Virus record (IMG/VR): IMGVR_UViG_3300045988_101049 | Span: 1-35,366 of that record | DNA: 35,366 bases | Origin: a virus | Direction: 5' to 3' (one strand) | Shown here: one piece after another, positions 6,389-31,931 of the stretch | Numbering within the stretch: position 1 is the first letter of the stretch | Layout of the letters: every line of letters begins with the position of its first letter | Translations under genes and position numbers: made by a program | The notes under the pieces: model-generated | Seen by the model: only the letters and a program-made list of their open reading frames with translations | Database searches by the model: none | What the model was told of the DNA's origin: nothing

Positions 6389-6402
6389 TATCGCCTCACC
6401 GG

Positions 6403-7616: not shown

Positions 7617-7640
7617 GTCGGGGGGACTTGCGCCCCCGAC
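7617..7640. other. GC-rich hairpin GTCGGGGG-8nt-CCCCCGAC in the 237-bp gap downstream of the primase
   Basis: Perfect 8-bp stem with no flanking U-tract. Nearby are the direct repeats tggacaga x2 and an AT tract. Possible origin or regulatory element. Confidence 0.3.
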
Positions 7641-7739
7641 TTATCTCCCCCTACTTTCCCCTGGACAGAATGGACAGACATACCAATATATATATAGCGG
7701 GTTTGTCGTCCATATTGTTAACCGTCTTTTTCCTTACTC

Positions 7740-11377: not shown

Positions 11378-11379
11378 AA

Positions 11380-11901: not shown

Positions 11902-11904
11902 TTG

Positions 11905-12849
11905 TTATTCTCCTTTGGTTTCTTTAATGACGGACACAACGCCGTCCCAATTTTTAATTAAGTTTTTTTCTACAAATTCGGTCGGGTACATTTCCAGCCG
12001 TTTTGATGCCGGATAATATCCCGCTTTCTCAACGGCCGCGCGTACCTGCTCATCGGTTACCTCAAAGTCGCTCATCAGCTTTACCAGCCGCGGGTCAATT
12101 TCCCGCTTAAATCGGTTCGGAATAATGTTCTCCAGCGGTTCATACGAAAGCGGAAATGACGGCGGCAAATCGTGCCGATTTTTCGCATCATAGGCGGGTG
12201 TGTGCGTGGTGTACACGGTTCGTTTCCCGCCGGTCGCTCTGTACTTTTCCGTACCGTTTACGTTGTACACTTTTGTTTCATAGTTGATGAATAAAAGCAT
12301 GTCCGCCCATTCTTTGATGATTGGCGCCGTTTGTGATGCGGTGCGTTTACCCAGCTTCAATTCGTAACGGTCATACGCGCCCGCCTCTCCCGGTTGCTCG
12401 AATTTACGAATTTGCGCGTGCGCCGTGAGTACCACATTCAAGCCGGCCGCGATAATCTCGTTTAACGACTTAATAAATTGTTCAAATTCTTCCCGGACAT
12501 AGGTGTAGCCGGTACCGTAGCCAAACGATTCAATGTTGGTCTTTTCGTGTTTTTTGCATACGTATTCAACGCATAGCATTTCCGCCCAGTCGACAGTATC
12601 AATCACGATGGTGCCAAAGTCATCGATAGCCGGATCTTTCGGAATACGCGCAATCATTTCTTTCAGTTCTTCCCATGTTTGCGGTACGGGCAAACGCGCA
12701 ACGTCCATGTGTGCCGTGCCGCCTTCCGTGTCAATGAATAAAGGCGCGGGAAATTGCGATGCTAATGTGGATTTGCCGATGCCTTCAATACCGTAAATCA
12801 CAATGCGCTGCGCCCGTTCTTGTTTGCCGCGTGTAATTTGAAATGACAA
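11905..12849 (-). CDS. Sak4-like RecA-fold ATPase (single-strand annealing/recombination)
   Basis: Walker A is IVIYGIEGIGKSTLASQFP, followed by FIDTEGG. It is flanked by Gp157 and DUF669 genes. The start is TTG with AAGGAG upstream. Confidence 0.7.
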   Translation of the reverse strand: MSFQITRGKQERAQRIVIYGIEGIGKSTLASQFPAPLFIDTEGGTAHMDVARLPVPQTWEELKEMIARIPKDPAIDDFGTIVIDTVDWAEMLCVEYVCKKHEKTNIESFGYGTGYTYVREEFEQFIKSLNEIIAAGLNVVLTAHAQIRKFEQPGEAGAYDRYELKLGKRTASQTAPIIKEWADMLLFINYETKVYNVNGTEKYRATGGKRTVYTTHTPAYDAKNRHDLPPSFPLSYEPLENIIPNRFKREIDPRLVKLMSDFEVTDEQVRAAVEKAGYYPASKRLEMYPTEFVEKNLIKNWDGVVSVIKETKGE

Positions 12850-12894
12850 GTTGTTTTCTCCTTTCTTGAATACCTAACGCGTCTCTCATGTTGT

Positions 12895-13383
12895 TTACTC
12901 AAATACCACGCTCTCCCCCTGTTCCAGAAATGCGCCGGTAACGGCTTGTCCTGCGTTCAGTGCTTTTTTGATGGCCGTTTTGTCGACGCTCGTCGTAACT
13001 TTCTCTCGAATAAATTCACGCGGGATAGCCGCCTCATCACTTACGATGACGCGCGCGGGATTCTTCCGGCGCTTAATGGTGAATAAATCACCTGCCGCCA
13101 CCCGCTTATCGGTTAAGGTTAAATACGTTAAACACAAGCCTTTCAGCCGTTCCATCGCGCGTTCTTTACGCTTGCGCATTTGCGCAAACTCGGCTTCTTG
13201 CGCTTTCAGCGCTTCCGTCATGCGCATTTGGTTGCGAAATAGCCAACCGATAGCGTCAATTTTTGCGCCCGCCGCATCTTCAATCGCGGCGAATGTGTCG
13301 GCGACTTCTTCCGGCGTTACTTCTTCACTTTCAAGGAGTTCCGCCAATGCGCGGTAATTTTCGCCGATTTCGTATAGTGTCAT
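12895..13383 (-). CDS. Siphovirus Gp157-family protein
   Basis: MTLYEIGENYRALAELLESEEV...AKIDAIGWLFRN...KRRKNPARVIVSDEAAIPREFI matches the Gp157 pattern. Typically found in synteny with Sak4. Confidence 0.7.
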   Translation of the reverse strand: MTLYEIGENYRALAELLESEEVTPEEVADTFAAIEDAAGAKIDAIGWLFRNQMRMTEALKAQEAEFAQMRKRKERAMERLKGLCLTYLTLTDKRVAAGDLFTIKRRKNPARVIVSDEAAIPREFIREKVTTSVDKTAIKKALNAGQAVTGAFLEQGESVVFE

Positions 13384-13676
13384 ATATGCACCTCTACATT
13401 TCTGTCGATTATCTTTTGGATAATCTCTTTCATGCCGTCAACTACTTTCAACATGCCTTCGCCTTGCCCATGGATATAATCCAGTGAACGTTCGTCAAGA
13501 AGATCCGTCTCATCAATGAAATTGGCAAGATGTTCGCCGATGGCTTCAAACGCTTTCAATTCGCTTGTAATCGATTTCCCCATTACTTTTTGATGGAAGA
13601 GACTTGTCGTGCTATAATTTATGTGTATAGTTCTTTGTGCGTCCGTTGCCGCGGGCGCATTTTTTATTTCAGTCAT
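13380..13676 (-). CDS. hypothetical early protein (98 aa)
   Basis: ATG at 13676 with GGGGGAAG upstream. Its ATG overlaps the stop of the upstream ORF (TATTATGACTGA). Confidence 0.5.
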   Translation of the reverse strand: MTEIKNAPAATDAQRTIHINYSTTSLFHQKVMGKSITSELKAFEAIGEHLANFIDETDLLDERSLDYIHGQGEGMLKVVDGMKEIIQKIIDRNVEVHI

Positions 13677-13911
13677 AATATTCTTCCCCCGCTTCTTCAG
13701 AAAAAATAACTTCCCAGTCATCAATTTCGAAGTTGTCGATGTTGCCCATAATGCTATCCTCGTAGTAATCGATTTTTCCGTCAATTTCTTCTTCATCGTC
13801 AGCCGTTACCTTAATAGTCGCCGTGATAATCGCTTTTACTTCCACCGTGTAAACATGTGTTTTAGGGATCGTCGGACGGTCAATCACCATTGGATTATCA
13901 GCTTCTTTCAT
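13669..13911 (-). CDS. small highly acidic early protein (80 aa)
   Basis: Contains DDEEEIDGKIDYYEDSIMGNIDNFEIDDWEVIFSEEAGEEYYD. Translationally coupled to both neighbours. Confidence 0.5.
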   Translation of the reverse strand: MKEADNPMVIDRPTIPKTHVYTVEVKAIITATIKVTADDEEEIDGKIDYYEDSIMGNIDNFEIDDWEVIFSEEAGEEYYD

Positions 13912-14168
13912 CTCGCCACCTCCTCCAAGTCAACGCATAGGCTCATCAGTACGCCGCCGCCAAGAATAGCGCCCCAACTTTTCGCAAGGTATTTCAGCGC
14001 CACCGAATAATCAACATATAACGCAACATCAGCCGTGATTAAATTCACCGCGCCGATTAACATAAGCGCCCCGCCGATCATCGCGCCAATTGCTCGCCAA
14101 TTTTCATGAAGGAAAAGCAGCGCTAATACCAGCCTTTGAACGACGGTAAGCTTTCTACGCCTTTTCAT
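13908..14168 (-). CDS. small 2-TM membrane protein (86 aa)
   Basis: Two hydrophobic stretches: LTVVQRLVLALLFL and IGGALMLIGAVNLITADVALYV. Confidence 0.5.
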   Translation of the reverse strand: MKRRRKLTVVQRLVLALLFLHENWRAIGAMIGGALMLIGAVNLITADVALYVDYSVALKYLAKSWGAILGGGVLMSLCVDLEEVAR

Positions 14169-14317
14169 TTCTTTTCGCCCCTTTCATCGTCTTTATACGA
14201 GATCCCCCGACGCTCGCATTCGCTTTTTATCACCATCATTACGGACCCCACGGCACCGATGAAAAACGCGCCGAATAGAAGCAGAATAAAAATCAGATCC
14301 AATAGCGATAATGTCAT
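14165..14317 (-). CDS. 50-aa single-TM peptide (absent from the ORF track, below 60 aa)
   Basis: MTLSLLDLIFILLLFGAFFIGAVGSVMMVIKSECERRGISYKDDERGEKK. It overlaps both neighbours by ATGA. Confidence 0.45.
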   Translation of the reverse strand: MTLSLLDLIFILLLFGAFFIGAVGSVMMVIKSECERRGISYKDDERGEKK

Positions 14318-14571
14318 TTTTCCAGCCTCTTTTTCGCTTTTAGGCTTTGCGTCGTCACAAGATAATCAATGAACGCGCCCGCATTAATAAGCCGCATGCC
14401 CGGATAACTGATGATTTTATCGTCATATTTACCGCTCGCTTCCATCATTGCCGCATGTTCTCGGATCTTTGTATCGCCGAGGCCTACGAATTTTTTTAGC
14501 CCACTTGTTTTGCACCAGGTATCGCCGGCGGAAATAAGCACGGGACCGTCTATCAGTTGAACGTCTGCCAT
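14314..14571 (-). CDS. hypothetical early protein (85 aa)
   Basis: ORF in the coupled early chain. No recognisable motif. Confidence 0.45.
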   Translation of the reverse strand: MADVQLIDGPVLISAGDTWCKTSGLKKFVGLGDTKIREHAAMMEASGKYDDKIISYPGMRLINAGAFIDYLVTTQSLKAKKRLEK

Positions 14572-14574: not shown

Positions 14575-15030
14575 TTACGCCTCCTTTTCATCACGAATGT
14601 ACGTGCCGATCACCTTTGAATAGTAATCAGAAAGACTGATTTTAAGCCTCCACCCGTCGATCACGCGATATAATCGCACCCCCTTGAACAGACGTTGAAC
14701 AGTAGGCTCGTTCGGGGCGCTAATATCAACAATTCCCAACTCGATCAAAAAAATCTGATTTTCGATCGGTAAATATTCTCCCCCGCGCAAATCGTTCACG
14801 CGGTCATTAAAAACATCAACTTCTGCGAGCGTAACCACCGGTTCCATGTTCGCCATGTATCCCTCAATAGCCGTCAACACGTTTTGCTGCTCCAGATCGA
14901 GTGACGCTTTCACCGCTTGATACCTTTTCCATTGCTTCGCTGTTGCTTTCGTGGTTTGATACGCTTTCCATTGCTCGGCTGTTGCTTTCGTGGTTGGATA
15001 CGCTTTCCCTTGCTTGACTGTTGCCGTCAT
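14575..15030 (-). CDS. early protein with N-terminal tandem 13-aa repeats (KAY.TTKATA.QW)
   Basis: Protein repeat KAYPTTKATAEQW / KAYQTTKATAKQW / KRYQAVKAS. This matches a ~39-nt tandem DNA repeat at about 14905..15025. Confidence 0.55.
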   Translation of the reverse strand: MTATVKQGKAYPTTKATAEQWKAYQTTKATAKQWKRYQAVKASLDLEQQNVLTAIEGYMANMEPVVTLAEVDVFNDRVNDLRGGEYLPIENQIFLIELGIVDISAPNEPTVQRLFKGVRLYRVIDGWRLKISLSDYYSKVIGTYIRDEKEA

Positions 15031-15062
15031 TTGTTTTACCTCCTCTTTTATAGAATTTAATT

Positions 15063-15260
15063 CTAGTTTTTGGGTAAAAAATTAATGTTGTCAATCGGTA
15101 TCTTGTAGGCCTGTGAAATTCGTTTCTGGAACAACGCACTTACGCGCCAAGGTTCTTTTTCCCACCGAATTAAAGTGTCCTTACCGATACCGATTTTTGG
15201 CGCCGCTTGCTTAATAGTAAGGCTGGCATTTACGCGCGCCGCTCGTAATGAAATTTGCAC
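15063..15260 (-). CDS. cro: Cro-like XRE-family helix-turn-helix regulator
   Basis: 65 aa. LTIKQAAPKIGIGKDTLIRWEK is a helix-turn-helix. It is divergent from the CI-like gene. Start is GTG with GGAGGTG upstream. Confidence 0.7.
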   Translation of the reverse strand: MQISLRAARVNASLTIKQAAPKIGIGKDTLIRWEKEPWRVSALFQKRISQAYKIPIDNINFLPKN

Positions 15261-15291
15261 TTTTTCACCTCCGTTCCTTTATCTTGCTCAT

Positions 15292-15320
15292 AGTATAATC
15301 TAGAATTTTATGCTAGTCAA
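15292..15320 (-). promoter_or_regulatory. sigma70-type promoter for cro (TTGACT-17-TATACT on the - strand)
   Basis: Reverse complement of agtcaa (15315..15320) and agtata (15292..15297), with a 17-nt spacer. Confidence 0.6.
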
Positions 15321-15350
15321 GACTTTTTTTCTACTTTTTCCCAAAAAATA

Positions 15351-15379
15351 TTGACCGTTCAAGAATTTTAATCTATACT
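15351..15379 (+). promoter_or_regulatory. sigma70-type promoter for the CI-like repressor (TTGACC-17-TATACT)
   Basis: Hexamers at 15351..15356 and 15374..15379. The ribosome binding site AAAGGAG and the ATG at 15405 follow. TCTAGA palindromes at 15298 and 15397 could be operators. Confidence 0.6.
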
Positions 15380-15404
15380 ATTCATAAAAGGAGCGGATCT
15401 AGAT

Positions 15405-16046
15405 ATGTTAGAGACTGAAATTCGCGCTATTTTTAGCCGCAACTTAAAAATGTATATGGAAATCCACGACCTTAACAACGTAGAATTAAGCCGCATTGTT
15501 GGCGTATCTGAAAGCACCGTCGGCAAGTGGCTGCTTCAAAAGTCTTTGCCGCGCATGGGTGTTGTTGAACAACTTGCCAACTATTTCAAAATTAATAAAT
15601 CGGACTTATTGGAAGATAAAAACAGGGCTGTTTCAATACCAGACGATCCCAACGTTTTCACGCCTAAATTAAAAAAAGTCCCTTTATTGGGGACTACTGC
15701 AGCCGGCGAACCGATATTGTCAGATGAACATTTTGAAGGCTATGTTGGAACAACCGCAAATGCTGATTTTTGTTTGCGGGTTAACGGAGACAGTATGACC
15801 GGCATAGGAATTTATGACGGCGACATCGTTTTTGTTAAGTCGCAAGAGAACGCGGAATCCGGTCAAGTGGTAGTCGTACGCATCAACGGCGACGCCGTCA
15901 CCCTTAAGCGTTTCTATCATAACGGCGAAAGCGTCATTCTGCAGTCAGAAAATCCGGCCTATCCGCCTATGATATTCAACGCTGACAACTGTGACGATTT
16001 CCGTATATTAGGTATTGCTATCATCAAGCAAAGTGTTATTAAATAA
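15405..16046 (+). CDS. cI: CI-like repressor (N-terminal XRE helix-turn-helix plus C-terminal S24/LexA-type autopeptidase)
   Basis: N-terminus LNNVELSRIVGVSESTVGKW. C-terminus RVNGDSMTGIGIYDGDIVFV...AVTLKRF carries the Ser/Lys dyad. Confidence 0.85.
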   Translation: MLETEIRAIFSRNLKMYMEIHDLNNVELSRIVGVSESTVGKWLLQKSLPRMGVVEQLANYFKINKSDLLEDKNRAVSIPDDPNVFTPKLKKVPLLGTTAAGEPILSDEHFEGYVGTTANADFCLRVNGDSMTGIGIYDGDIVFVKSQENAESGQVVVVRINGDAVTLKRFYHNGESVILQSENPAYPPMIFNADNCDDFRILGIAIIKQSVIK

Positions 16047-16085
16047 TTATTTTTTTATATACATGTAGAGGAGGCACGCAAAACA

Positions 16086-16502
16086 ATGGATACTATTTTG
16101 GAGTGGGCTATTATTATTGGCGCGTCTTATGCGATATACCGTCGGTATCAAAAGCAAGTGCTTGCAAACAAATCGCTTTATTCAAAACGCACTTATGCTT
16201 TAATAGAAATTGCTGTGGCTATTATTTTCTTTGTGCTGGCGGCCATTTCGGGAAATTATATCTCGTCGGCATATCGGTACGGGTTTAACCCAACTGCTTT
16301 TGAGCATGGCGCGTTTTATATGTGGTTGCAACTAGATCTGGCAACAATTAACGCGGTTTTTACTGGCTTTTATAGTCGGTCGCTTAAATGGTCAATGTTC
16401 AAATCAACAATAATGGCACTGTTAACATTGTTTATATTTGGCGCCCCAATACCATTTTTGATGATTATGTTTTCAAAACCGAAACAAGCACCAAACAATT
16501 AA
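16086..16502 (+). CDS. 4-TM membrane protein between cI and int (candidate superinfection-exclusion-type gene expressed in the lysogen)
   Basis: 138 aa with four hydrophobic segments. Ribosome binding site GGAGG. Sits in the lysogenic operon. Confidence 0.5.
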   Translation: MDTILEWAIIIGASYAIYRRYQKQVLANKSLYSKRTYALIEIAVAIIFFVLAAISGNYISSAYRYGFNPTAFEHGAFYMWLQLDLATINAVFTGFYSRSLKWSMFKSTIMALLTLFIFGAPIPFLMIMFSKPKQAPNN

Positions 16503-16523
16503 ATAAATTTACATAAATTAAAA

Positions 16524-16546
16524 GCGGAGCGCTGGTAACGCTCCGC
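16524..16546. terminator. stem-loop GCGGAGCG-7nt-CGCTCCGC (terminator-like; U-tract only on the - strand side)
   Basis: Perfect 8-bp stem 21 nt after the stop of the membrane-protein gene. Confidence 0.4.
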
Positions 16547-16668
16547 AGAGAGACGCGCCCACCGTGGCATTAGGAGATGCACACAACACGGTGACGCGGA
16601 CAGTAAAACACGCCCGAAAAGGGCTGTTTTCTGTATGTTTAATTATATCACAATAAGGAGGAAAAGCC

Positions 16669-17814
16669 ATGTATATCGAGGAACGAAAGTCAAAAAGCGG
16701 CCGCACGTCGTACCGTGCCATTGAAACGTACATTGACCGATTAACCGGAACGCGTCGGCGCGTATCTGTGACGATGGACAAAAAGACTAACGCGACAATA
16801 AAGTGGGCAACCGCCGAATTACAAAAGAAGATTGATGCGGCGCAAGAAACGAAAACGGGGAAAAATATCACACTTGCGGAGTTATTAAAAGAGCATGCGG
16901 AGTACCGCCGCCCCGATGTTAGACCGTCAACACAGCGCGCGCATGCGGATTCGATTAAGCGGCTTGTTAAGATATTTCCGGACGGTCTTTTAATATCAGC
17001 CATTACCCTGTCCATTGTGCAAAAGTCATTTATTAAAATGCGCCATCTGTCCGGTGTCACCGTCAGCATGACCGTCGCATTTTTCAAACAGTCAATGAAG
17101 TACGCTAAACGTATGAAGTATATTGAAGATATAAGCTTTATTCATGAAATGACGGTTTCCGGGCGCCCTAAAACGGTAGACGATGTAAAACGCGCGCGCG
17201 AAAAGTTTTTGACACGCGAAGAGCTGGCGGAAGTGCTTCAAAAAGTACGCGAAATAAAGCCGAGATACGCCCTCATGCTTGAATTTATAGCGCTTACCGG
17301 CTTACGCGCCGGCGAATGCTCCGGTTTGCGTTATCAAGATTTTGACGGACAAAACATTGATATTAACGGCACGATCACCCACTCCGTCCCGTTTTCTGCC
17401 AAAGAAATAAAAACGCCGCCGAAAACACTGTCATCTTTCCGGACGGTAGCGCTCAACAGTCGCGCTATTGAAATTTTGAACCAGATCCGGATTGAAAACA
17501 TGAAGTCGGCGGCCGCATGGGGTAAACGAAAATACACGGAAAAAGGCTACTTCTTTACATCGTCGACGGGCAACCCTATCCGCTTTTCCGACATAAATTA
17601 CACGCTTCGCTCGCTTAAATTGCCGCGTCATATATCGACGCACGTATTTCGCCATACGCATATATTTTTATTGGCGGAGTTAGGCGTTCCGCTTAAAACG
17701 ATCATGGAGCGCGTCGGACATATCAATCCGAAAACGACGCTAGCCGTTTATTCGCACGCAAGCGAACAGATGCATCGTGACGCTGCCGATAAACTCGACG
17801 AGATATCAATGTAA
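16669..17814 (+). CDS. int: tyrosine-type site-specific integrase
   Basis: Contains LTGLRAGECSGLRYQDF...HVFRHTHIFLLAELG...VGHINPKTTLAVYSHAS, giving the R..HxxR..Y catalytic signature. Ribosome binding site AAGGAGG. Confidence 0.9.
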   Translation: MYIEERKSKSGRTSYRAIETYIDRLTGTRRRVSVTMDKKTNATIKWATAELQKKIDAAQETKTGKNITLAELLKEHAEYRRPDVRPSTQRAHADSIKRLVKIFPDGLLISAITLSIVQKSFIKMRHLSGVTVSMTVAFFKQSMKYAKRMKYIEDISFIHEMTVSGRPKTVDDVKRAREKFLTREELAEVLQKVREIKPRYALMLEFIALTGLRAGECSGLRYQDFDGQNIDINGTITHSVPFSAKEIKTPPKTLSSFRTVALNSRAIEILNQIRIENMKSAAAWGKRKYTEKGYFFTSSTGNPIRFSDINYTLRSLKLPRHISTHVFRHTHIFLLAELGVPLKTIMERVGHINPKTTLAVYSHASEQMHRDAADKLDEISM

Positions 17815-17815
17815 C

Positions 17816-18056
17816 CGTGGGGGAACGATGGGGGAAAATTTAACGATGGAAACGAAAGCGCCACGATGAAGGCAAAAACAAAGAAGCCTACAACGGCGGG
17901 CTTTGCGACGGTTATGCGGCTTGTACGATGACAACAAAAACAGTAGTGTTTATATATTAAATATATAAAACACAGACAAAAGAACACCCGTAAATAGGCG
18001 TTTGTTGCTTATGGATCTTTCTTGTGGGGGAACAATGGGGGAAAACTATTTCAATT
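17816..18056. other. attP-like region directly downstream of int: 22-bp direct repeats TGGGGGAAC(G/A)ATGGGGGAAAA at 17816 and 18034, plus the AT palindrome TTTATATATTAAATATATAAA (17960..17981)
   Basis: Repeats and palindrome read directly from the sequence. Position immediately after int. Confidence 0.45.
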
Positions 18057-18077
18057 CAAGCCGACAACAATAGACTT

Positions 18078-18171
18078 TATGCGCTATAACGCATACGTTA
18101 AAAAGTTTTTTGAAAAATATTTTATTTTCTTTGCTTTTTCGCTTGACATCTTATAACGCTAGCGTTATACT
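18078..18171 (+). promoter_or_regulatory. strong promoter TTGACA(18143)-17-TATACT(18166) with a perfect 18-bp palindrome TATAACGCTAGCGTTATA (18152..18169) across the spacer/-10, and a related inverted repeat TATGCG-6-CGCATA at 18078..18095
   Basis: Consensus -35, 17-nt spacing, near-consensus -10, AGGAGG ribosome binding site and ATG at 18230. The palindrome would act as an operator that auto-represses the promoter. Confidence 0.6.
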
Positions 18172-18229
18172 ATAATCAGAAAGCGGGGAGAGAGACCCGC
18201 CAAGGTTAAAAACTTAGGAGGAACGAAAA

Positions 18230-18691
18230 ATGACGAAAATTGAAATCAAGGAAATGACAAAACAAGAACAGGACGCGCTTTTATTTAACCGCCACCCCGA
18301 ATTCAAAATGCTTGATGAAAACACGGGAACGATCGGAAGCTACGCTATTATTAAGTTTAACGAAAGAGATCCGCAAGATCTGGACGACGAAAAAGAAAGC
18401 GCCGCCGAAATTTGCGAACGCTATACGCACGAGGAAATTATTCCTGCGTTAGCGCTCATGGCCTACCAACAAGACGATCGTTTTGATAAACTTCCGGAAT
18501 ATATCGCCGAATTTGAAAAATCGCGGAAAAGCGGCGAACCGATGGGCTTTTACCCGTTCGCAACCAACGAAAAAGAATTACGCGGATATCTGGAAGATGA
18601 AATGATCGATCAAAATATTGATGAACATCTGAAAGACTTCGGCGGTCAGTATATTTATAGCCCGCTCGGCGCGTTATTCTTAAATCGTTAA
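18230..18691 (+). CDS. acidic 153-aa protein of unknown function (moron; anti-defense candidate)
   Basis: Strong ribosome binding site, acidic composition (many D/E) and no recognisable motif. First gene of a two-gene operon beside attP. Confidence 0.6.
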   Translation: MTKIEIKEMTKQEQDALLFNRHPEFKMLDENTGTIGSYAIIKFNERDPQDLDDEKESAAEICERYTHEEIIPALALMAYQQDDRFDKLPEYIAEFEKSRKSGEPMGFYPFATNEKELRGYLEDEMIDQNIDEHLKDFGGQYIYSPLGALFLNR

Positions 18692-18696
18692 TCGCA

Positions 18697-18888
18697 ATGT
18701 TAATCGATGAAGTTTTAACCGCCAAAGAAGCGGAGGATCGCTGGAAGTTGGCGCCGGGGCTTATCCGGCAATGGATATTTCACGCGCCGGACAAGTTCGC
18801 CCAAGGCGAAATCAGAAAATCAAATCGCATCTGGTTAATCACTAGAGACGCCATGGTGAGGCATTTCGGCAAAGAACCGGAACAATAA
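18697..18888 (+). CDS. small MerR/excisionase-type (HTH_17-like) DNA-binding protein; Aca-like regulator or excisionase
   Basis: LTAKEAEDRWKLAPGLIRQWI...RKSNRIWLITRDAM fits the excisionase-family helix-turn-helix pattern. Confidence 0.55.
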   Translation: MLIDEVLTAKEAEDRWKLAPGLIRQWIFHAPDKFAQGEIRKSNRIWLITRDAMVRHFGKEPEQ

Positions 18889-18923
18889 AAAAAGCGGAGC
18901 GGGCAAAATGCCTGCTCCTTTTT
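18887..18923. terminator. bidirectional rho-independent terminator
   Basis: A-run, then GGAGCGGGCA...TGCCTGCTCC, then TTTTT, between convergent genes. Confidence 0.6.
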
Positions 18924-18986
18924 CATTTCACCGCCGCCGCAATAACCGCGGCTACCGCTATGATCTGCCACGCCCTTTTTTTATGT

Positions 18987-19361
18987 TCAAGGCTCGTTCG
19001 CTTCCTCAACTCTTCTTTTTTCCACCTCATCAACGACTGCTCGGACTCTTTCAAGGCTTGCTCTGTCTTGCTCAAGGATTGCCGTTGCTCGATCTGCAAC
19101 GCTTTCAACCGATTTATTTCCGCTTTCAATTCGTTGTTGCTCTTGTTCAATCCGCCCGACGCTGCTTTCAATTCGTTGATTAAGCTCTCCCGCTCGTTCG
19201 TTCTCTGTTCTAGCGCGTTCAATTCTGACGTTAGTGTCCGCCATTCCTCCGCCGTCAATGTCACCGGCGCCGCCTTCGCTGAATAACCACCAAACAAAAA
19301 AGCCGCCAATAATAGCGGCAACAAGAATAATAGCAATCTTCGCTTTAGCAATCGTTCTCAC
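18987..19361 (-). CDS. N-terminally membrane-anchored acidic coiled-coil protein; an alternative overlapping frame 18923..19351 is also open
   Basis: Frame B (GTG start) encodes IAIILVAAIIGGFFVWWLF followed by RIE-rich heptads, with G-rich first codon positions. Frame A (TTG start, better-spaced ribosome binding site) encodes a signal-peptide-like N-terminus, a Leu-heptad coiled coil and a C-terminal TM. Confidence 0.45.
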   Translation of the reverse strand: MRTIAKAKIAIILVAAIIGGFFVWWLFSEGGAGDIDGGGMADTNVRIERARTENERAGELNQRIESSVGRIEQEQQRIESGNKSVESVADRATAILEQDRASLERVRAVVDEVEKRRVEEANEP

Positions 19362-19369
19362 CCCTTTTA

Positions 19370-19396
19370 TAGTATGTGCAATTTATTCACATACTA
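19370..19396. promoter_or_regulatory. perfect 9-bp inverted repeat TAGTATGTG-9nt-CACATACTA directly upstream of the coiled-coil gene start
   Basis: Read directly from the sequence. A minus-strand hairpin with a U-tract lies at 19414..19445 just beyond it. Confidence 0.4.
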
Positions 19397-19646
19397 TATA
19401 TAGAGAAATTAAAAGGACTTGCGTACTCATCGTAGACAAGTCCCCGCGGCTCTCCCGTAGGTTTACCGCTATTCTATTAAATTATAACATCAGCATATTT
19501 CGCTTTCAGCTATTTCCATTTTGGAAACAACTGCCGTCACCACCCATGAAAAAACCGTTATTTTTTCCTAGCGACACACTTCATCTATGAAAAAATACAT
19601 GATTTTTCCTACTGCAGTCAAAGTAAGGGTGTATATTTGCCAATAT

Positions 19647-19696: not shown

Positions 19697-20071
19697 TCAC
19701 ACTATTTGCCGAATTAACGCATCCCGTAACGCAGCCGAAAAGTTTATTTTTTGTCGTTGAGCCACCTCATCAAGCCATGCGGGAATTGTTAAAGTTTTAT
19801 TGCGCAAGTCTTGCGTGTCATTCATATCTGCCACGACATATGTTACAACTTCGATTTCATCACATATAATATCTTCCAGTTTTGACGGCTCTGGAAGACT
19901 TTCTCCATCCACTAATGCAGAAATAAGAAATAGTCCTGACGCTTCTGCGGCGTTTTCCATCGCCTCATCAAGAGAGTCTCCGCAAGTATAACATCCATCT
20001 AAATCAGGAAAAGAAACTGCATATTTGCCAGAGCCTTCCTTTGTAAAAATTGCCGGATATGTTTTGTTCAT
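19697..20071 (-). CDS. hicB: HicB-family antitoxin (UPF0150 fold plus C-terminal ribbon-helix-helix-like tail)
   Basis: MNKTYPAIFTKEGSGKYAVSFPDLDGCYTCGDSLDEAMENAAEA... matches HicB N-terminal domains. It follows hicA. Confidence 0.7.
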   Translation of the reverse strand: MNKTYPAIFTKEGSGKYAVSFPDLDGCYTCGDSLDEAMENAAEASGLFLISALVDGESLPEPSKLEDIICDEIEVVTYVVADMNDTQDLRNKTLTIPAWLDEVAQRQKINFSAALRDALIRQIV

Positions 20072-20109
20072 AGTTTACACCCCCCAGACCGTGAATTACA
20101 TGCGGGGTT

Positions 20110-20286
20110 TCATTTCAACCCCGCATGCTTCATAATCGCCCTTTCTGTGCCTTTTGCTAATTCAGTTGTGTGATACGGCACAATAATTGTCTTTCCGTCT
20201 TTTTTCAGCTTTCTGTGACTTCCTTTACTTGTTGTTTCTATCCATCCCGCTTTAATTAACTTGCGGTAGATTTCTTTGCCCGTCAT
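20110..20286 (-). CDS. hicA: HicA-family mRNA interferase toxin (58 aa, absent from the ORF track)
   Basis: MTGKEIYRKLIKAGWIETTSKGSHRKLKKDGKTIIVPYHTTELAKGTERAIMKHAGLK matches the HicA signature (KGSH...VP.H..EL..GT...I.K.AGL). Ribosome binding site AAGGAGGGAGGG. A hairpin GCGGGGTT-7-AACCCCGC overlaps the stop. Confidence 0.8.
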   Translation of the reverse strand: MTGKEIYRKLIKAGWIETTSKGSHRKLKKDGKTIIVPYHTTELAKGTERAIMKHAGLK

Positions 20287-20977: not shown

Positions 20978-21517
20978 TCACATCTTTATTTTCTTTTCGA
21001 CTTTATCTTTGACAAGCTCAAGAAAGCGCCCCATAACGACGTTGCCGCCGTCCCTCATGTTTTCCAGAATAGATAAAAATTCCGATGCGCCCAAGTACAT
21101 CCAGACGAGATTGACAGCGAACCCCGCACCGGTCATGAAGTCCCAGCAGAATCCAGCCGCCGTGGCAATGGTATAGGTCAACAGCTTATAAAAAAAGCCA
21201 TTGCGACAAAATCGCGATGATACACGCCCCTCGGCGAACGCTACCGGAATAAATATCCACTTATCAAAGCCGGATATATTTTCCGGCTTCGCTCCTTTTT
21301 CAAGTAGCATTTGATACGTGAGTGCGCTCCACTTGGTGGTAAGGTCAATTAGTACCAATAAAATAAACACGCCCAAGACTTGAACGTGTTTTAAGTGGAT
21401 CAACCAGATCGCCCCGCTACCTACGGCGGAAAAAAAGGACTTCACCCACCACGCGTCGGCGAGTTTTGTCATTGCCTCCGATACTCCTTGAATTATTTCG
21501 TTTAGCTCTTTAACCAT
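20978..21517 (-). CDS. holin-like multi-TM membrane protein
   Basis: 179 aa with 3-4 hydrophobic segments, immediately upstream of the endolysin and after the tail fibre. Confidence 0.6.
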   Translation of the reverse strand: MVKELNEIIQGVSEAMTKLADAWWVKSFFSAVGSGAIWLIHLKHVQVLGVFILLVLIDLTTKWSALTYQMLLEKGAKPENISGFDKWIFIPVAFAEGRVSSRFCRNGFFYKLLTYTIATAAGFCWDFMTGAGFAVNLVWMYLGASEFLSILENMRDGGNVVMGRFLELVKDKVEKKIKM

Positions 21518-21565
21518 AAAATTCGCCCCACTAAAAAAGCACCCTCAGAAGGTGCTGATAATAAA

Positions 21566-23032
21566 CTATGCCCTAACCCACGACATAGTGTTCCAGTTGA
21601 CTTTTTTAGTTTTATTTACATTGTACACGGTAGCCGTTGTAGGTATTTTAACACCTCCATTTGGTACCCATTTTTCGGATAGAATAACCGTTCGCAAGGA
21701 TTTACATTCATCAAATACGAAGCTATCAATGTCAGCGCATTTAGGAATAGAAACCGAAACAAGTCGAACGCAGCCGTGAAACGCCCAGCTTGCGATCTTC
21801 GTACACTCGGGAAGTGATATTTCCGTAAGGTTTGAGCATTGGAAAAACGCGTCATTCGCCAATGATCTACAAGCGGGTAATGATACGCTTTTTAATTGAC
21901 TACAGCCGCAAAACGCTTTAGTGCCGACATATTCGCAATTCGGAGCATTCGCCCCAGTTATTTGAGCGTAATTATAAAGTGCCCTTTCTTCAATTTGCGT
22001 CACACTTGCGGGGAACTCAAGGTTTTCCGGCTTATTCAATTTATATTTCTCCGCAATTGATTGTGTGACGATTTGAATGCCGTTCGGGATACAGTATTTT
22101 TTGAAGGAAGTGAACACTTTTTCTGTGTGTGTCCGTCCTGCGTAATCCACCCATTGAATAGTAACTTCCGTTGCATTTGGATCAGGAGTAGCGGGCAATC
22201 GCCACCGCCCATCACTACCGGATATTGCCGTTTTCCCTTTGAAGATAATCTTCACATTGGGCGACGCAGTGCCCGTCATTTCAGTTACTCCTTCTTCTAT
22301 GGGATCGACTTTAATTGGCAAAAGCTTAACAACCGGAAAAATCGTTTCCAAGCCCCGGAAATTATCCATGTCATAATTGCGCTCTTTTAACCACTGATAG
22401 AAAGCATCGGTACTCGCGCCTTTAGGCTGAAACTTATTGTCCGCCTCCGTTTTAGTATAGACGTCGGTTGTGCTTGCTTTTCCTTTTAACGCGTTTTCTG
22501 TTGTTGCCTTGTCCGCCTTTGTTCCAATTTTATTTGCGACGGTAGTGGCAAAGTTCGGATCATTCCCCAACGCTTCCGCCAACTCTTGCAAGGTGTCAAG
22601 CGTTTCCGGCGCGCTATTGACGATATTCGCCACACGACCGTCGACGTATTCAACACTTGCATACGTGCCTTTTAACTGATATTTCGCGTCGCTTTCCGCT
22701 TTCGTATAGGCGTCAATTTTGTCCGTTTTTTGTAAGTATCTTCCGTCTGCTTCCGTTTTCGCATAGACGTCTGCCGCGTTAGCTTTTGCTCCAAGTTCCT
22801 TTTTTGTCGCAAGCCCGCTTGTCGCGCCGGTTAATTCGGCATGAGTTACAAAGTTAGACGTATCTACGCTTGATTTTTGCTCGTATAGGCACTCAAGATT
22901 ATTCATGACGTAATCTATCCACCCGTCGTTCTGCTTGTTGGATAGCGCCGTATTTTTGCCGTATGCTCCGCTAGAGATGATGTTGTCGTTTTCATCTCTG
23001 ATTTCTGCATGCTGGAACGTTTGTTTTTTCAT
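21566..23032 (-). CDS. tail fibre / receptor-binding protein with a C-terminal BspA-type leucine-rich-repeat domain
   Basis: N-terminal fibre-type repeats (DVYAKTEADGRYL, DVYTKTEADNKF). C-terminal Cys-containing ~23-aa repeats (CSQLKSVSLPACRSLANDAFFQCSNLTEISLPECTKIASWAFHGC). Confidence 0.65.
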   Translation of the reverse strand: MKKQTFQHAEIRDENDNIISSGAYGKNTALSNKQNDGWIDYVMNNLECLYEQKSSVDTSNFVTHAELTGATSGLATKKELGAKANAADVYAKTEADGRYLQKTDKIDAYTKAESDAKYQLKGTYASVEYVDGRVANIVNSAPETLDTLQELAEALGNDPNFATTVANKIGTKADKATTENALKGKASTTDVYTKTEADNKFQPKGASTDAFYQWLKERNYDMDNFRGLETIFPVVKLLPIKVDPIEEGVTEMTGTASPNVKIIFKGKTAISGSDGRWRLPATPDPNATEVTIQWVDYAGRTHTEKVFTSFKKYCIPNGIQIVTQSIAEKYKLNKPENLEFPASVTQIEERALYNYAQITGANAPNCEYVGTKAFCGCSQLKSVSLPACRSLANDAFFQCSNLTEISLPECTKIASWAFHGCVRLVSVSIPKCADIDSFVFDECKSLRTVILSEKWVPNGGVKIPTTATVYNVNKTKKVNWNTMSWVRA

Positions 23033-23042
23033 AGATTGCTCC

Positions 23043-23729
23043 TTAATAGCCTGTTACGTCGATAAGCATATAGGAAAAACATTTCTGCTCGTAATGTATC
23101 TCTTCATACGACGGAATATAAACGTACCCCCCGGAATATGTCCCGTCAGCCTCTACCCCGTCTTTACCAAGCTTTACGTATCGCGTTACTGATGTAACGA
23201 ATGCGTTTTGCTCACCGCTGCGATATTCAGTATCTTCATAAGCTTCAACCCCCAACTGCGCTATTGCATATGTTTTAGACGCGTCTGGATACTGGATAAC
23301 ATCGTCTGCGTTTTTTCCGTAGTAAGACACTCTCATATATTTAGCGTTGCTGTCGAAAATTAAATCGCCGTTATCGTTAAATATTTGCATCCCTACGTTT
23401 CCTTTTGCCTTTTGATCCACCCCAAATACATAAGCTACGTAATTTGAGTCGATAGACGATAAATCAATGTAGTCGAGATCCGCCCCATAAAAGTCGCAAT
23501 AGCCGGAAAAATTAAGTTGAATAATACCAATCCGGCTACCTTTGGGATAGCTTACTGCGGCAACAATCTCCCCGCGGTTTAAATGTAGTCTTCTTGCTAT
23601 CGTGCCTTCATTATTAACGGCGGGCATTTGTGATAGTGAAACCTTTCTCGATAGCATTAAATTTTTATATAAAGAGTCAACTACCAACTTATTGTTATCG
23701 TTTCTTACTTCAATTCCTGCTTCGCTCAT
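23043..23729 (-). CDS. hypothetical tail/baseplate-associated protein
   Basis: ORF in the tail module. Start taken at the ATG at 23729 (MSEAGIEV). Confidence 0.45.
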   Translation of the reverse strand: MSEAGIEVRNDNNKLVVDSLYKNLMLSRKVSLSQMPAVNNEGTIARRLHLNRGEIVAAVSYPKGSRIGIIQLNFSGYCDFYGADLDYIDLSSIDSNYVAYVFGVDQKAKGNVGMQIFNDNGDLIFDSNAKYMRVSYYGKNADDVIQYPDASKTYAIAQLGVEAYEDTEYRSGEQNAFVTSVTRYVKLGKDGVEADGTYSGGYVYIPSYEEIHYEQKCFSYMLIDVTGY

Positions 23730-23731
23730 AG

Positions 23732-24283
23732 TTAATACACCCCGTATAAAATTGTTCCATGTAAACATTGATCGGACGGATTAGAGTATGTCCACGTTAA
23801 CCTATTGCCCCTCTTTTCTATAACCGGTCCTACGTATACAATATTGCTTATCGCTGGTTTGCTGCCTTTTGGTTCAGCAATATCCTTAAAAACATACCAT
23901 AACTCGCCTTCTCTTAATACTTCATTTGTTAAACTCCCCGATGTGCCGTTAACTTTAAAGCTTCCACAATACTTAGTAATTCTGTCCGTAATATCAAGTA
24001 CGCAGTTCCCGTTCTCGTCAAATACTTGTAGCCCTTGCGGCATATGCTTAATTCGCCCCCATCCCTTTTTACCGTCCTTTGTCCAATAAATCTTTTTCTC
24101 CGTCGGTAGCGGCTTAACGACAATGTGTTCCGTTGTATCTTCTTTAGGCTTTTCTTCCGGCTTAATAGGGCTAGGCTTTTCTTCCGGCTTAATAGGGCTA
24201 GGCTTTTTCTTCTTCCTGCCGGTAAGCAAATAGATAATTCCTGCAACAATCAGCGCGTAAATTAAATACTCCATGATTACCAT
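23732..24283 (-). CDS. N-terminally membrane-anchored protein with a perfect tandem 11-aa repeat (KPSPIKPEEKP x2)
   Basis: N-terminal TM segment YLIYALIVAGIIYLL. The exact 33-nt tandem DNA repeat lies at about 24147..24212. Confidence 0.55.
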   Translation of the reverse strand: MVIMEYLIYALIVAGIIYLLTGRKKKKPSPIKPEEKPSPIKPEEKPKEDTTEHIVVKPLPTEKKIYWTKDGKKGWGRIKHMPQGLQVFDENGNCVLDITDRITKYCGSFKVNGTSGSLTNEVLREGELWYVFKDIAEPKGSKPAISNIVYVGPVIEKRGNRLTWTYSNPSDQCLHGTILYGVY

Positions 24284-27200
24284 ACCCCCATCCTTACTCT
24301 TAAATGACCGTTACTATCGAATACTTGAATAAGATTGTTACTGATTTCAGTTCTTGCCCCGCTTGTCGCCGTTCGTAATAGTCCGATATTTGCCGTAATC
24401 GCCGATAACTCATTAACGGCAAGCTTATCCGCCGATATTGATTTGGCTGCAAGCATATTGTTCACAATGACGTTATTATCGAATAATGTATCACCGGTAA
24501 CATGTACAAATTTGCCGTCAATCTTAATGGATTCAGGACAGATGTTAATTTGACTGATTAACTTTGCTTTGTCAGCCTTTTGCTCCACTCTTAAATTGAC
24601 CGTATTATCTAACTGCGTAATGCGGCTGTTTACGCCGTCAACCTTGTTATTAACGTTCTGCGTAATGGCGTCGTTTAGCTGTACGATACGGGATTCTATA
24701 TTGCCTTTGATCTTTTGTTCGTAGTATTTCTCCGTTCCGCTTGCTACTCGTTCATCAATCTTCCCTATCTCGTTTTCAAGTCTGGTAAGCCCCAATTCCT
24801 CCTTATCGATCATCTCTTTAGGAATGGTTGCTTCGACTACTACGCGGCTTGATTCTGACCTATCACCTTCCCCAAAAATGTCGTAATAAGCAATCGTAAC
24901 ATCATAGATCCCCGCCCCGCACAAATAGGGCATCGCGTTGTTTTCCGTCTTCAATGCTGCGTCATTATTGATGTAAACGGTCATTCCCGCGCAACCCGCC
25001 GGGATGGCTTCCGCTTGTACCGAAAATCCACCGAGTGTTGCTGTCAGTTTGGGCGGCTTCGGCTTCGGCGGCTTTTGCTTGTTATAAGTCAGCTCCGCAG
25101 GAGCAGAATACTTTCCGATTGCAGACCGTGCGAACAGGAACAGTTTCCCCGTTCTCTGTGTCAATGGAAGTATCGCCGACAGATTATTTGTTCTTGCCAA
25201 TAGGTTTTCGGATTCTTCTCCCGCATTGGTATCACGGCGGATTTCATAAAACGCGACGTCCGTGTTGGTAACCTCTTGCCAGCTTGCCGTTGCCGCCGCC
25301 CCAAACGCGACAGAAAATCCGTCAGGAGTGTTCGGTGTTTCGGTTTTAAGTGCCACAAGTATCTTAATTTGAGGGGAACTGTCGGGACTTGTGACTTCTC
25401 CGAACGTGTCCTTCGTGCAGACGGCTATTAGGTAAGTATCGCCGACAACGGCTTGCGGAATTACAACTTGATTCTTTCCGCTGCCGCCAAATATCCACTC
25501 GCCTTGAAAGCCGATTTCTGACACGGGAACATCCGCCATTTTTGCAACGGATACGGACTGTTGGTTGCTGGTCTTGTACCATACGTCGCCCTGTAAGTAA
25601 GTCTGCAGTTCCGGCGGTGTCCAATTAACTACAATGTCATATCTCGAAACGCCGTCACTTAATTCTCTGTAGCGGTTATAGGCGGTCAGCCCGGTCACCG
25701 CAGGAATGAAATAATTCTGCAGTTTGTATTCGTAAGCCTTAACCGCTGATAAATCCTGTTCACCGGCGCCGAATATGTTTCTTGAAACAAATTTCAGGTA
25801 GATTTTTTTGCCGATGTCTTTTTTCGTGAAGGGCAATTTCAGCAAGTAATTGTCCAGCCGAACAAACGATTCGCCGGCGGCATGCGTCGCCTTGACTGTG
25901 TTGTATTGCCCTCGTACAAGTCCTTCGAGTAAATACGTGCCGTCGTTTTGGAGCGTCGCTGTCGTATATGACAAACATTCCCCGGCAACCCAACACATAG
26001 TGTTTCCGCGCTCTGCATCTTCGGGCTTCCCACTTAACAGTTGGCCGTTGCAACTGACCTGTATTTTGCCGTCGCTGTATGACTTAACCTCACCAAGTCT
26101 TGAGGAGTTATTGATGTCTCCGACGTGGATATAGTGTTCGTTATCATCCGACACATAAACACTACAACCGCCCCAATTCTTCTCTTTCCCTTTGGCGGCA
26201 ATCCATAATTCAAGCCCCGCTTTTGTCATATCTGCCGGCGGCTGGAACATAACCGGGACAGTGTCGCAAGCCGTGTCGTTCATGTTGATATACGGTCGGT
26301 CGTTTTCGTGTACGTCGTATTGCGCCGGCTCATAATTGCCATCCGGCATAGAGATTGCCCGGAACAACAGCAGCCCGTCTTGGTCTTCTGTGACTTCACT
26401 AATAACGGCAACTTGTTTTTCCATACCCGAATACTCATCGGTCAGTGTTACCAAGTCCCCGACTTCAAGCCGGCAAAAGCACCAGTCAAGCTTAAAGGTG
26501 TATCGGTTTCGTCCGTAAAAATTAATCCTTGCGATTTGTTCTGCAATCTTAACGGCGCGTTCTTTCGTGTAGATGTAGTTGGCGGCAAATACGCCCGCTT
26601 GTCTGCTTCCATACGCCTTAATATCATCGGTAAATTGATAGGTAACGGTCTCTTTTTCGTAGCCGTTTGCCCGATTGATAAACTCTACCGGGAATTGATT
26701 GTAGTTCTCTGACCCGTCTTTCCGTTCGTATCTGACCAATTCTCCTTCCGACTGCGGGATAAAGTCGTCCGCCGTCAGGTCATAAATAATCTGCTTGTTC
26801 GGCTTCCAGTTACCAACCTGCCTGTCGGCAAGCGGGATAATTTTGAATTGGTCATTTGACCAGAATATATAAGCGTTTGTGAGTTGTGCGATCTCGTTGA
26901 CGATATCCCTTGCCGTTTTCGTCTTTTCGTCCGGCGGTGTTGAAATCAAGATGTCTGCTTCCCTGCAGTACTGTCGGTAATTGTCCAGCCCTTGAATTTC
27001 AACGTCTTTCAATCCTGCTTTATCGAGTACGTATCGGATATAGTCCGCCGGATTGACGTCCACGCCGTCACCGGTGTTAAGTAACTTACCTTTAACCTCG
27101 AAATTGTAAGACGGGAACGCGCCCGAATCACCCAGATCTACAACGCCAGCCACATACGCAAGCCCCGGATAAGCGAGCGCCTTTTCCGGATGCTTGCCTT

Positions 27201-31916: not shown

Positions 31917-31931
31917 ATCGTCTCACCACCC

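Follow-up and report, generated by a model that had tools for sequence, protein, structure and literature searches.

Does the small two-gene operon beside the attachment site of a temperate phage serve to disarm the CRISPR-Cas system of its host? The question is raised by positions 18078-18923 of IMG/VR virus record IMGVR_UViG_3300045988_101049, which was analysed here over its whole 35,366 nt (hereafter, the window). The operon encodes an acidic protein of 153 amino acids (aa) followed by a helix-turn-helix (HTH) protein of 63 aa, and a reading made earlier from the letters alone (the sequence-only reading) had compared its architecture with that of anti-CRISPR (acr) operons closed by a gene for an anti-CRISPR-associated (Aca) autorepressor. 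The reading that we favour, and to which we give roughly an even chance, is that this is a self-repressed acr-aca-type operon of a temperate Negativicoccus phage, which would encode a new Cas9 inhibitor (candidate AcrIIA) and an Aca-like repressor of its own promoter. The architectural predictions that could be tested all held, consistent with an acr-aca-like anti-defence locus, and the CRISPR context adds weight. The link to CRISPR is stronger because the host carries Cas9, the bacterial attachment site (attB) lies at cas9, host arrays target the phage, and lysogen contigs contain self-targeting spacers. Comparisons were made with contigs labelled in the range L001 to L056.

A promoter with two putative operators

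The elements of the operon are as follows.

18085-18102, no strand assigned: putative upstream operator O2, TATAACGCATACGTTAAA (ATAACG-N4-CGTTAA)
18143-18171, plus strand: sigma-70-type promoter, with -35 TTGACA at 18143-18148, a 17-nt spacer and -10 TATACT at 18166-18171
18152-18169, no strand assigned: putative operator O1, the perfect 18-bp palindrome TATAACGCTAGCGTTATA, which fills the -35/-10 spacer and overlaps the -10
18183-18200, plus strand: stem-loop GCGGG-GAGAGAGA-CCCGC in the 5'-untranslated region, beginning about 5 nt past the expected transcription start
18216-18221, plus strand: ribosome-binding site AGGAGG, 8 nt 5' of the ATG
18230-18691, plus strand: acidic-protein gene (153 aa), candidate Cas9 inhibitor
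18697-18888, plus strand: HTH gene (63 aa; PF20038, HTH_59), starting 5 nt after the stop of the acidic-protein gene, candidate Aca-like autorepressor
18896-18918, no strand assigned: intrinsic terminator hairpin of 10 pairs, with an A-run before it and a T-run after it

The promoter agrees with the consensus at 11 of 12 positions, was the top-scoring promoter in a scan of 17700-19600, and is kept in every related locus that retains the HTH gene. From its sequence, it is predicted to drive a bicistronic mRNA ending at the intrinsic terminator. The terminator, as had been proposed, is predicted to act on both strands, being common to the operon and to a convergent gene for a 142-aa protein (18923-19351, minus strand).

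That a perfect 18-bp palindrome crosses this promoter was borne out. O1 is the longest perfect palindrome of the window; its length alone is not significant, because a palindrome of at least 18 bp arose somewhere in 56 of 300 Markov shuffles, and it is position and repetition that carry weight. O2, which lies upstream, is identical to O1 at 14 of 18 positions, and the exact motif ATAACG-N4-CGTTA occurs in the 35-kb window at these two sites only. The related inverted repeat that the sequence-only reading had placed 70 bp upstream is present, at a distance of 67 bp from centre to centre. What that reading had seen may have been the repeat ATGCG..CGCAT at 18079-18094, which overlaps O2; the unit conserved in the comparison is ATAACG-N4-CGTTA.

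A phylogenetic footprint of the promoter among related loci supports the palindrome as an operator. Seventeen loci entered the footprint, and L053, L003, L047, L048 and L054-L056 were read besides. Across the 17 loci, O1 has the form T(C/T)ATAACG-NNNG-CGTTATAC and O2 the form ATAACG-NNNN-CGTTAAAA. The O1 half-sites are invariant in 15 of the 17 (L036 and L038 have ATAACT as the left half), and the O1 centre varies across all of them (CTAG, ACTG, ATAG, GCTG, TTAG). O2 behaves in the same way, with invariant half-sites around a variable centre (CATA, CAGT, AACA, CAAT, TAGT), and the flanks of the half-sites vary among related promoters. L053 has the O2 variant TTAACG-ATTG-CGTTAA. Counted over all 19 related promoters that were compared, 17 have unchanged ATAACG-N4-CGTTA half-sites. 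Where the HTH protein has diverged, as in L003 and L048 (60-63% identical), another palindrome, TTCACG-AATA-CG(T/C)GTA, occupies the O1 position; where the HTH gene is reduced to a remnant (L054-L056), the promoter is a different one without the operator motif. Operator and HTH gene thus change and vanish together, which is the best available evidence that the HTH protein binds these sites and represses its own promoter. From this co-variation, together with the place of O1 between -35 and -10 and the constancy of the half-sites around changing centres, we infer that the 63-aa protein probably binds O1 and O2 and acts as an autorepressor.

In the mechanism that we propose, a dimer of the 63-aa protein would bind O1 and O2 and, once enough of it had accumulated, would shut off its own promoter, like Aca1 and Aca2. 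The close spacing or overlap of the two open reading frames (ORFs) would keep the repressor substoichiometric. The 153-aa acidic protein would bind and block the host Cas9 or its guide-loaded complex, allowing the phage to infect and lysogenise CRISPR-immune cells and allowing lysogens to tolerate spacers against their own prophage.

The leader stem-loop is maintained in related loci with other sequences, as GAGG..CCTC in L003 and L048 (L003, about 3262-3282) and as ATGAGG..CCTCAT in L047 (about 5955-5975). It is also a target of host spacers, and could be an mRNA stabiliser or an RNA site of the regulator. The convergent 142-aa protein beyond the terminator has a hydrophobic N-terminal segment and a long coiled coil, with weak PHROG matches to Rz-like spanins; a spanin of this kind would fit a diderm (Negativicutes) host. 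The gene is itself targeted by host spacers.

The two proteins and their variable cassettes

The 63-aa protein matched Pfam PF20038 (HTH_59) at 1e-18, with 67.5 bits against a cut-off of 27 and coverage of profile positions 4-65 of 66; pXO2-72 and HTH_17 matched below their cut-offs. Its structural model (predicted local distance difference test, pLDDT, 82.6) has the element order beta-H-H-beta-beta-H (H, helix). The Foldseek neighbours of this model were TraN of pIP501 (4p0y), Tn916 Xis (1y6u), BldC (6ama), Pukovnik Xis (4j2n) and RdfS (8dgl), at query-normalised TM-scores of 0.5-0.7, identities of 12-18% and E-values above 0.1. The protein is an excisionase/MerR-type winged helix, in agreement with the earlier description. 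By Pfam type it does not belong to the known Aca1-Aca12 families, since none of the models associated with them matched; their best Pfam types are HTH_24, HTH_3, HTH_29, KORA, DUF1870, YdaS_antitoxin and similar (PMC9765179). A word-indexed search with the 63-aa protein returned five near-identical clusters only, the wider HTH_59 family lying beyond the reach of this search. PF20038 is also annotated on the neighbour gene in related loci, and the literature searched contained one mention of HTH_59, as a putative regulator in a Parageobacillus phage.

This fold brings in an alternative close to one that the sequence-only reading had itself named, in which the 63-aa protein is the excisionase (recombination directionality factor), maybe also a repressor. 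The 153-aa protein would then be a moron with an unrelated task, such as lysogenic conversion or superinfection exclusion. The fold is right for an excisionase, three of the Foldseek neighbours (Tn916 Xis, Pukovnik Xis and RdfS, at query-normalised TM-scores of 0.5-0.6) belong to this class, and the protein matches the C-terminal part of phrog_2655, 'excisionase', at 1.5e-11, a label that is a similarity-based annotation and not an experiment. The HTH gene lies about 740 bp from the attachment core and O1/O2 lie 125-200 bp from it, and no other excisionase-like ORF was recognised near the integrase gene (int) or in the early region. However, the motif is an inverted repeat inside the gene's own promoter and not an array of direct repeats in an attachment arm, and an autonomous near-consensus promoter for an excisionase would be expected to destabilise lysogeny. 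The linkage pattern also tells against it: the HTH gene keeps company with the acidic-protein gene and not with int or the attachment site, since L003 and L047-L050 have no integrase nearby and L039, L042 and L053 have other attachment sites. With fold and PHROG match on one side and linkage and promoter palindromes on the other, we consider this alternative unlikely. The excisionase and repressor roles are not mutually exclusive, because such a fold can do both: P2 Cox is an excisionase-fold protein that is both a repressor and a directionality factor, and 186 Apl is named likewise.

The 153-aa protein has an isoelectric point (pI) of 4.5 and a net charge of -16, and its whole family is likewise acidic. 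Searches of Pfam, PHROGs and NCBIfam, with the protein singly or with its profile, gave noise only, as did sequence and profile searches of the PDB (aldehyde-alcohol dehydrogenase and CYP51, at E of at least 0.1); structure searches found no fold relative of known function. The description of an acidic protein without a recognisable domain therefore stood, and no known structural or housekeeping family was matched by profile or fold. The AlphaFold model, built from a 25-sequence alignment (pLDDT 92.3; predicted TM-score, pTM, 0.86), consists of a beta-rich N-terminus, a helical centre and a beta/alpha C-terminus. The family is small: clustering at 90% identity gave 40 clusters among 5.8 billion proteins, and clustering at 50% gave 7 among 1.84 billion representatives. 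A single locus represents it in IMG/VR, blastn of 16600-19400 gave no match among INPHARED phages, and a search of the GTDB species genomes with the family alignment gave no relative.

The charge suggests a second alternative, in which the cassette is auto-repressed but the acidic protein counters some other defence, as an ArdA- or Ocr-like DNA mimic against restriction-modification or by acting on another system, so that the CRISPR context is coincidental. The family-wide acidity speaks for this, and the protein resembles ArdA (Tn916 Orf18, 2w82) in length, in negative charge and, loosely, in its beta-rich/helical/beta-alpha order of elements. The top structure match in BFVD is an 'antirestriction protein', at a non-significant score, and the module also occurs in prophages away from cas9. 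Identity as ArdA was rejected by sequence, none of the 25 family members matching Pfam ArdA (PF07275) at E up to 10, and by profile, with an hhalign probability of 0.1% against the verified Tn916 ArdA sequence. All structural scores fall short of the usual significance, and a protein directed at another defence would leave the self-targeting spacers of the lysogens, described below, unexplained. We regard this alternative as unlikely, though the likeliest of those considered.

The composition of related loci bears on how the two genes belong together. In the related loci fetched, an HTH_59 gene, called or uncalled, follows the acidic-protein gene and is always the last gene where it is kept. 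The pairing persists at the most distant homologue, a 213-aa protein of L047 that is 31% identical over the C-terminal half. What precedes the HTH gene varies, as the following cassettes show (numbers are protein lengths in aa).

Window: 153 + HTH
L047: 213 + HTH
L003: 97 + 107 + 212 + 86 + 165 + HTH
L048-L050: 160 + 86 + 153 + 160 + HTH, two of these proteins being paralogues of the acidic family (41% identical to each other)

The sole exception to HTH_59-closed cassettes in the acidic-protein family is one lineage, found in three different samples (L054-L056), in which an intact 156-aa acidic-protein gene stands beside an HTH remnant (QIRQW...RHFGTEPEK). The module as a whole was found in phages with at least four different insertion contexts. 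It lies beside int and the phage attachment site (attP) in the window, at prophage ends adjoining a 419-aa ORF (L001, L039, L042) or an Na/H antiporter gene (L053), and, in L003 and L047-L050, as an island on the opposite strand that separates packaging from early genes, far from any integrase.

These cassettes also decide against a reverse-order type II toxin-antitoxin module, with an acidic toxin followed by an auto-repressing HTH antitoxin. Such a module would account for the two-gene layout, for the palindrome in the promoter and for the small DNA-binding protein encoded second, and a HicAB pair nearby indicates that toxin-antitoxin modules occur in this region. Two acidic paralogues share one HTH gene in L048-L050, though, and domain searches found no similarity to any toxin family. 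The toxin-antitoxin reading was rejected on L054-L056, where the intact acidic-protein gene persists with its own promoter beside an HTH remnant, as a toxin could not; we judge it highly improbable.

Several observations on neighbouring genes are recorded here. In L054, 9781-10806 (also in L055 and L056), the acidic-protein gene is 69% identical, has the promoter TTGCCA-17-TATAAT and lies downstream of a SocA/PemK pair in a P2-like phage. The longer cassettes (L003, 3327-4916; L048, 5228-5986) hold 86-, 97- and 107-aa paralogues and 160- and 212-aa repeat proteins of the G(L/I)D(V)xxYA(D/N)P type; these have no Pfam match and are further anti-defence candidates. The HicA toxin (58 aa) and HicB antitoxin (124 aa) genes of the window, at 19697-20286 on the minus strand, lie between the lysis genes and the cassette, and occur also in L036 and L039-L041.

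Insertion at cas9 and self-targeting spacers in lysogen contigs

The sequence-only reading had placed the operon beside attP, and the attachment site could be defined by comparison.

17817-17838, plus strand: 22-nt direct repeat GTGGGGGAACGATGGGGGAAAA, int-side arm of attP (context only, outside the operon)
17956-17965, no strand assigned: attP common core ATTAAATATA, the sole stretch common to attP, the empty attB and both prophage junctions
17983-18002, minus strand: terminator-like hairpin for leftward transcription, left edge of the conserved module
18024-18045, plus strand: second copy of the 22-nt arm repeat, operon-side arm, 95% identical to the 17817-17838 copy

The core was aligned from the attP of the window, the empty attB of L009, L010 and L011, the cas9-side junction of L005/L027 and L036, and the tracrRNA-side junction of L046 (tracrRNA, trans-activating CRISPR RNA). 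The arm repeats flank the core, and the int-side copy is retained beside int in the lysogen junction L046; the repeat is probably an arm-type site of the integrase. Homology among phages with different attachment sites starts at the hairpin 17983-18002. In the same interval, O2 overlaps a weak possible leftward promoter, TTTAAC-17-TAAAGT (18040-18110, minus strand; seen by eye, with no support from the scan), from which a transcript of about 80 nt would run through the arm repeat to this hairpin.

Because the GTDB search gave no relative of the acidic family, the host was sought through the neighbouring Cas9. The Cas9 encoded beside the prophage shares 90-91% identity with its counterparts in Negativicoccus succinicivorans and N. 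massiliensis, and the source names of the HTH and Int homologues are also N. succinicivorans. The host is Negativicoccus, a gut bacterium with Cas9. Its type II-A locus comprises cas9-cas1-cas2-csn2, the array and the tracrRNA gene. The last of these was recognised on the far side of the core, on the opposite strand, where a gene is bounded by a promoter that matches at 11/12 positions and by a terminator. Between the 5' end of this gene and the CRISPR repeat (GTTTGAGAGTAGTGTCATATCC...), a duplex of -23.3 kcal/mol is predicted, compared with -9.7 +/- 2.7 for shuffles, and because of this repeat:anti-repeat duplex we assign the gene as that of the tracrRNA; Rfam returned nothing relevant for the region upstream of cas9.

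Downstream of the empty attB, cas9 starts after about 155 bp, and the distance from attB to the tracrRNA promoter is about 100 bp (host coordinates: L010, 5823-5860; L046, 11270-11530; L027, 9587-9760). In several independent contigs (L004, L005/L027, L031, L033, L034, L036, L038, L051 and L052), the operon-bearing end of the prophage adjoins the start of cas9. In NCBI assembly GCA_902506685.1, a related prophage whose Int is 94% identical meets the tracrRNA gene with its int end, through the same core. The two junctions together therefore place the integration point of the phage between the tracrRNA gene and cas9. No other transcription unit of the prophage is as close to cas9 in lysogens as this operon, which is read away from cas9. 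The literature searched contained no paper describing an attB between a tracrRNA gene and cas9, and none linking Negativicoccus, or this diderm Firmicute lineage, with anti-CRISPRs.

The host arrays hold a record of this phage. With a threshold of three or fewer mismatches to the window, all six arrays yielded matching spacers: 2 of 9 in L009, 3 of 9 in L010, 6 of 14 in L027, 8 of 38 in L036, 12 of 44 in L051 and 1 of 7 in L052. Several matches are perfect. The protospacers of these six arrays in the window are as follows.

Positions 2151 to 14386: 2151-2180, 5766-5795, 9116-9145, 9541-9587, 11972-12061, 12251-12292, 13669-13698, 14357-14386
Positions 14915 to 19309: 14915-14944, 15858-15887, 17564-17593, 18027-18056, 18162-18194, 18827-18856, 19250-19309
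Positions 21422 to 33876: 21422-21531, 21825-21854, 22270-22299, 26662-26691, 28739-28768, 29365-29394, 33847-33876

Four or five of them fall within 17564-18856, in int, the arm repeat, the operon promoter and leader, and the HTH gene. Hotspots targeted independently by different arrays are 9541-9587, 12251-12292 and 18162-18194, the last being the operon promoter and leader, which is targeted from two arrays on opposite strands. The protospacer 13669-13698 overlaps a very acidic 80-aa ORF of the early region (13669-13911, minus strand), which ends in ...DDEEEIDGKIDYYEDSIMGNIDNFEIDDWEVIFSEEAGEEYYD and has no family match; this is another possible anti-defence gene.

The flanks of the protospacers suggest strain-specific protospacer-adjacent motifs (PAMs): NNNRCC for L027, NNNAAAA for L009, an NGC-like motif for L010 and an NNNGAA-like motif for L036. 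These agree with the divergence of the Cas9 orthologues, which are 92-98% identical centrally and 71-83% identical in the last ~200 residues, where their differences are concentrated (L027, 5411-9586; L036, 5419-9585; L009, 3215-7390; L010, 6001-10176). One L027 spacer matches int at 30 of 30 positions (17564-17593), where the 3' flank is TAAATT in the window and TAAACC in the related phage L008; the L008 flank fits NNNRCC, and the window may carry a PAM-escape change. The L010 (N. massiliensis) array contains the same spacer, GGCGGCAGCAGATTTTAGCGAAGATTA(A/G)CG, four times consecutively (12288-12515), and its first 22 nt match L008 (11862-11883).

Two lysogen contigs contain spacers against their own prophage, within a comparison that covered about 10 kb around the gene. 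L027 has one spacer that matches at 30 of 30 positions (9798-9827, flank CAAGCC) and a second that does so at 29 of 30 (9933-9962, flank GAGACC, mismatch at PAM-distal position 11), both flanks fitting NNNRCC; the perfect target is the operon-side arm repeat (window 18024-18045). L036, a 567-kb scaffold with the whole prophage inside, has a self-match of 28 of 29 positions, with a mismatch at position 9 and the flank AGCGAAGG, which fits NNNGAA. Because mature guides of type II-A systems have lost the 5' part of the spacer by trimming, the L027 and L036 self-matches are effectively perfect. Cas9 is full length in all lysogens, and cas9, cas1, cas2 and csn2 are intact in both self-targeting contigs.

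Tolerance of such spacers might be explained by the insertion itself, if integration between the tracrRNA gene and cas9 disabled CRISPR-Cas expression and the operon did something else. The attB does lie inside the divergent tracrRNA-cas9 control region, and no consensus cas9 promoter was detected in the 155 bp retained upstream of cas9. A precedent exists in PhiAP1.1 of Streptococcus pyogenes, which integrates into the repeats of a type II-A CRISPR array and carries AcrIIA23 (bioRxiv 10.1101/2020.10.09.333658). However, insertion leaves the tracrRNA gene with its 11/12 promoter, since both lie on the same side of the core. At the empty site a terminator-like hairpin with a 12-bp stem stands directly upstream of the core, and the phage brings its own hairpin to the equivalent place; with a hairpin before the core in both the empty and the occupied state, the cas9 transcript probably originates inside the retained 155 bp. 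The S. pyogenes phage, moreover, still needs AcrIIA23 for lysogeny under targeting (bioRxiv 10.1101/2020.10.09.333658), and the silencing and anti-CRISPR mechanisms are thus not exclusive. As the sole explanation, silencing by insertion appears quite improbable.

Weighed as an acr-aca-type operon, the locus can be set against the criteria of AcaFinder, which looks for genes on one strand with gaps below 250 bp, proteins below 200 aa and an HTH protein below 150 aa (PMC9765179). Here the two genes lie 5 nt apart on the plus strand and encode proteins of 153 and 63 aa, the shorter being the HTH_59 protein; the setting is a prophage in a host with complete CRISPR-Cas and self-targeting spacers, the latter in metagenome contigs. 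Several points weigh against a Cas9 inhibitor with an Aca-like repressor. The 153-aa protein showed no similarity to anti-CRISPR proteins (Acrs) with solved structures, and in that comparison AcaFinder's further criterion, a homologue of a known or catalogued Acr, found no counterpart. The 63-aa protein, with its excisionase fold and PHROG match, is the sole recognisable excisionase-like protein near int in the window. The self-targeting contigs are metagenome assemblies and could join a lysogen junction to the array of a non-lysogen, and a third lysogen scaffold, L051, showed no self-target in 10.5 kb of readable prophage. The module also occurs in prophages inserted elsewhere (L039, L042, L053), and lysogens might owe their tolerance of self-targets to another prophage gene or to the insertion itself.

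A more far-reaching picture, which we offer as doubtful, is that the phage attacks the type II-A system at two levels, through an attB in the tracrRNA-cas9 region and through a constitutive, self-limited operon placed beside cas9. The inhibitor would then have a previously unseen fold, and HTH_59 would be a new Aca class, perhaps also a directionality factor that links excision with anti-CRISPR output. Cassettes of variable content that end in HTH_59, with their 86-, 97- and 107-aa paralogues and repeat proteins, would provide a guilt-by-association handle for anti-defence genes in Negativicutes phages.

Comparison with known systems

If the 153-aa protein inhibits Negativicoccus Cas9, it would represent a new AcrIIA family with a new fold in a diderm Firmicute lineage, and Aca regulators would extend to the excisionase/MerR winged helix (PF20038), giving a new guilt-by-association marker. 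The context may matter more, as a natural system for the coexistence of prophages with an adaptive immunity that remembers them. The same system poses a second question, namely whether insertion into the CRISPR control region itself modulates immunity. Practical interest may attach to the Cas9 orthologues, which differ mainly at the C-terminus and for which at least three or four PAMs are apparent.

An Aca-repressed anti-CRISPR operon is a known kind of locus, with examples in acrIF1-aca1 of Pseudomonas phage JBD30 and acrIF8-aca2 of Pectobacterium phage ZF40. Like these operons, the present one places one or more small unannotated acidic genes before a small HTH gene on the same strand, behind a strong promoter with two inverted repeats, one of which overlaps the core elements. 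The genes of the cassette differ from locus to locus, with the HTH gene conserved at the end, and the setting is a phage or prophage in a host with complete CRISPR-Cas and self-targeting spacers. It differs in its HTH protein, a PF20038 excisionase/MerR winged helix and not any Aca1-12 Pfam type, and in its first protein, which has no homology to the Acrs that were checked; here, inhibition and repression are predicted from sequence and context. New would be the protein family and its fold, the HTH_59/excisionase-type Aca, the host lineage and the attB between the tracrRNA gene and cas9.

The 63-aa protein resembles Tn916 Xis, Pukovnik Xis, RdfS, BldC and TraN in predicted fold and size. It differs from these Xis/MerR-like proteins in that its putative sites are promoter palindromes and not direct repeats in attachment arms, and in that its gene travels with the acidic-protein gene and not with the integrase. 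AcrIIA1 of Listeria prophages combines anti-Cas9 activity with HTH autorepression and protects self-targeting lysogens, with both domains in one protein. The present candidate would likewise be a prophage anti-Cas9 locus with built-in HTH autorepression; unlike in AcrIIA1, HTH protein and putative inhibitor are encoded by separate genes and have unrelated folds.

The closest ecological precedent is PhiAP1.1. Both are temperate phages with an attB within a type II-A locus, and PhiAP1.1 also carries an anti-Cas9 function, for which the 153-aa protein is the candidate here. Unlike in PhiAP1.1, the attB lies outside the repeats, between the tracrRNA gene and cas9, and the array is intact; the host is a diderm Firmicute (Negativicutes), and the candidate inhibitor is unrelated in sequence to that of PhiAP1.1 as far as tested.

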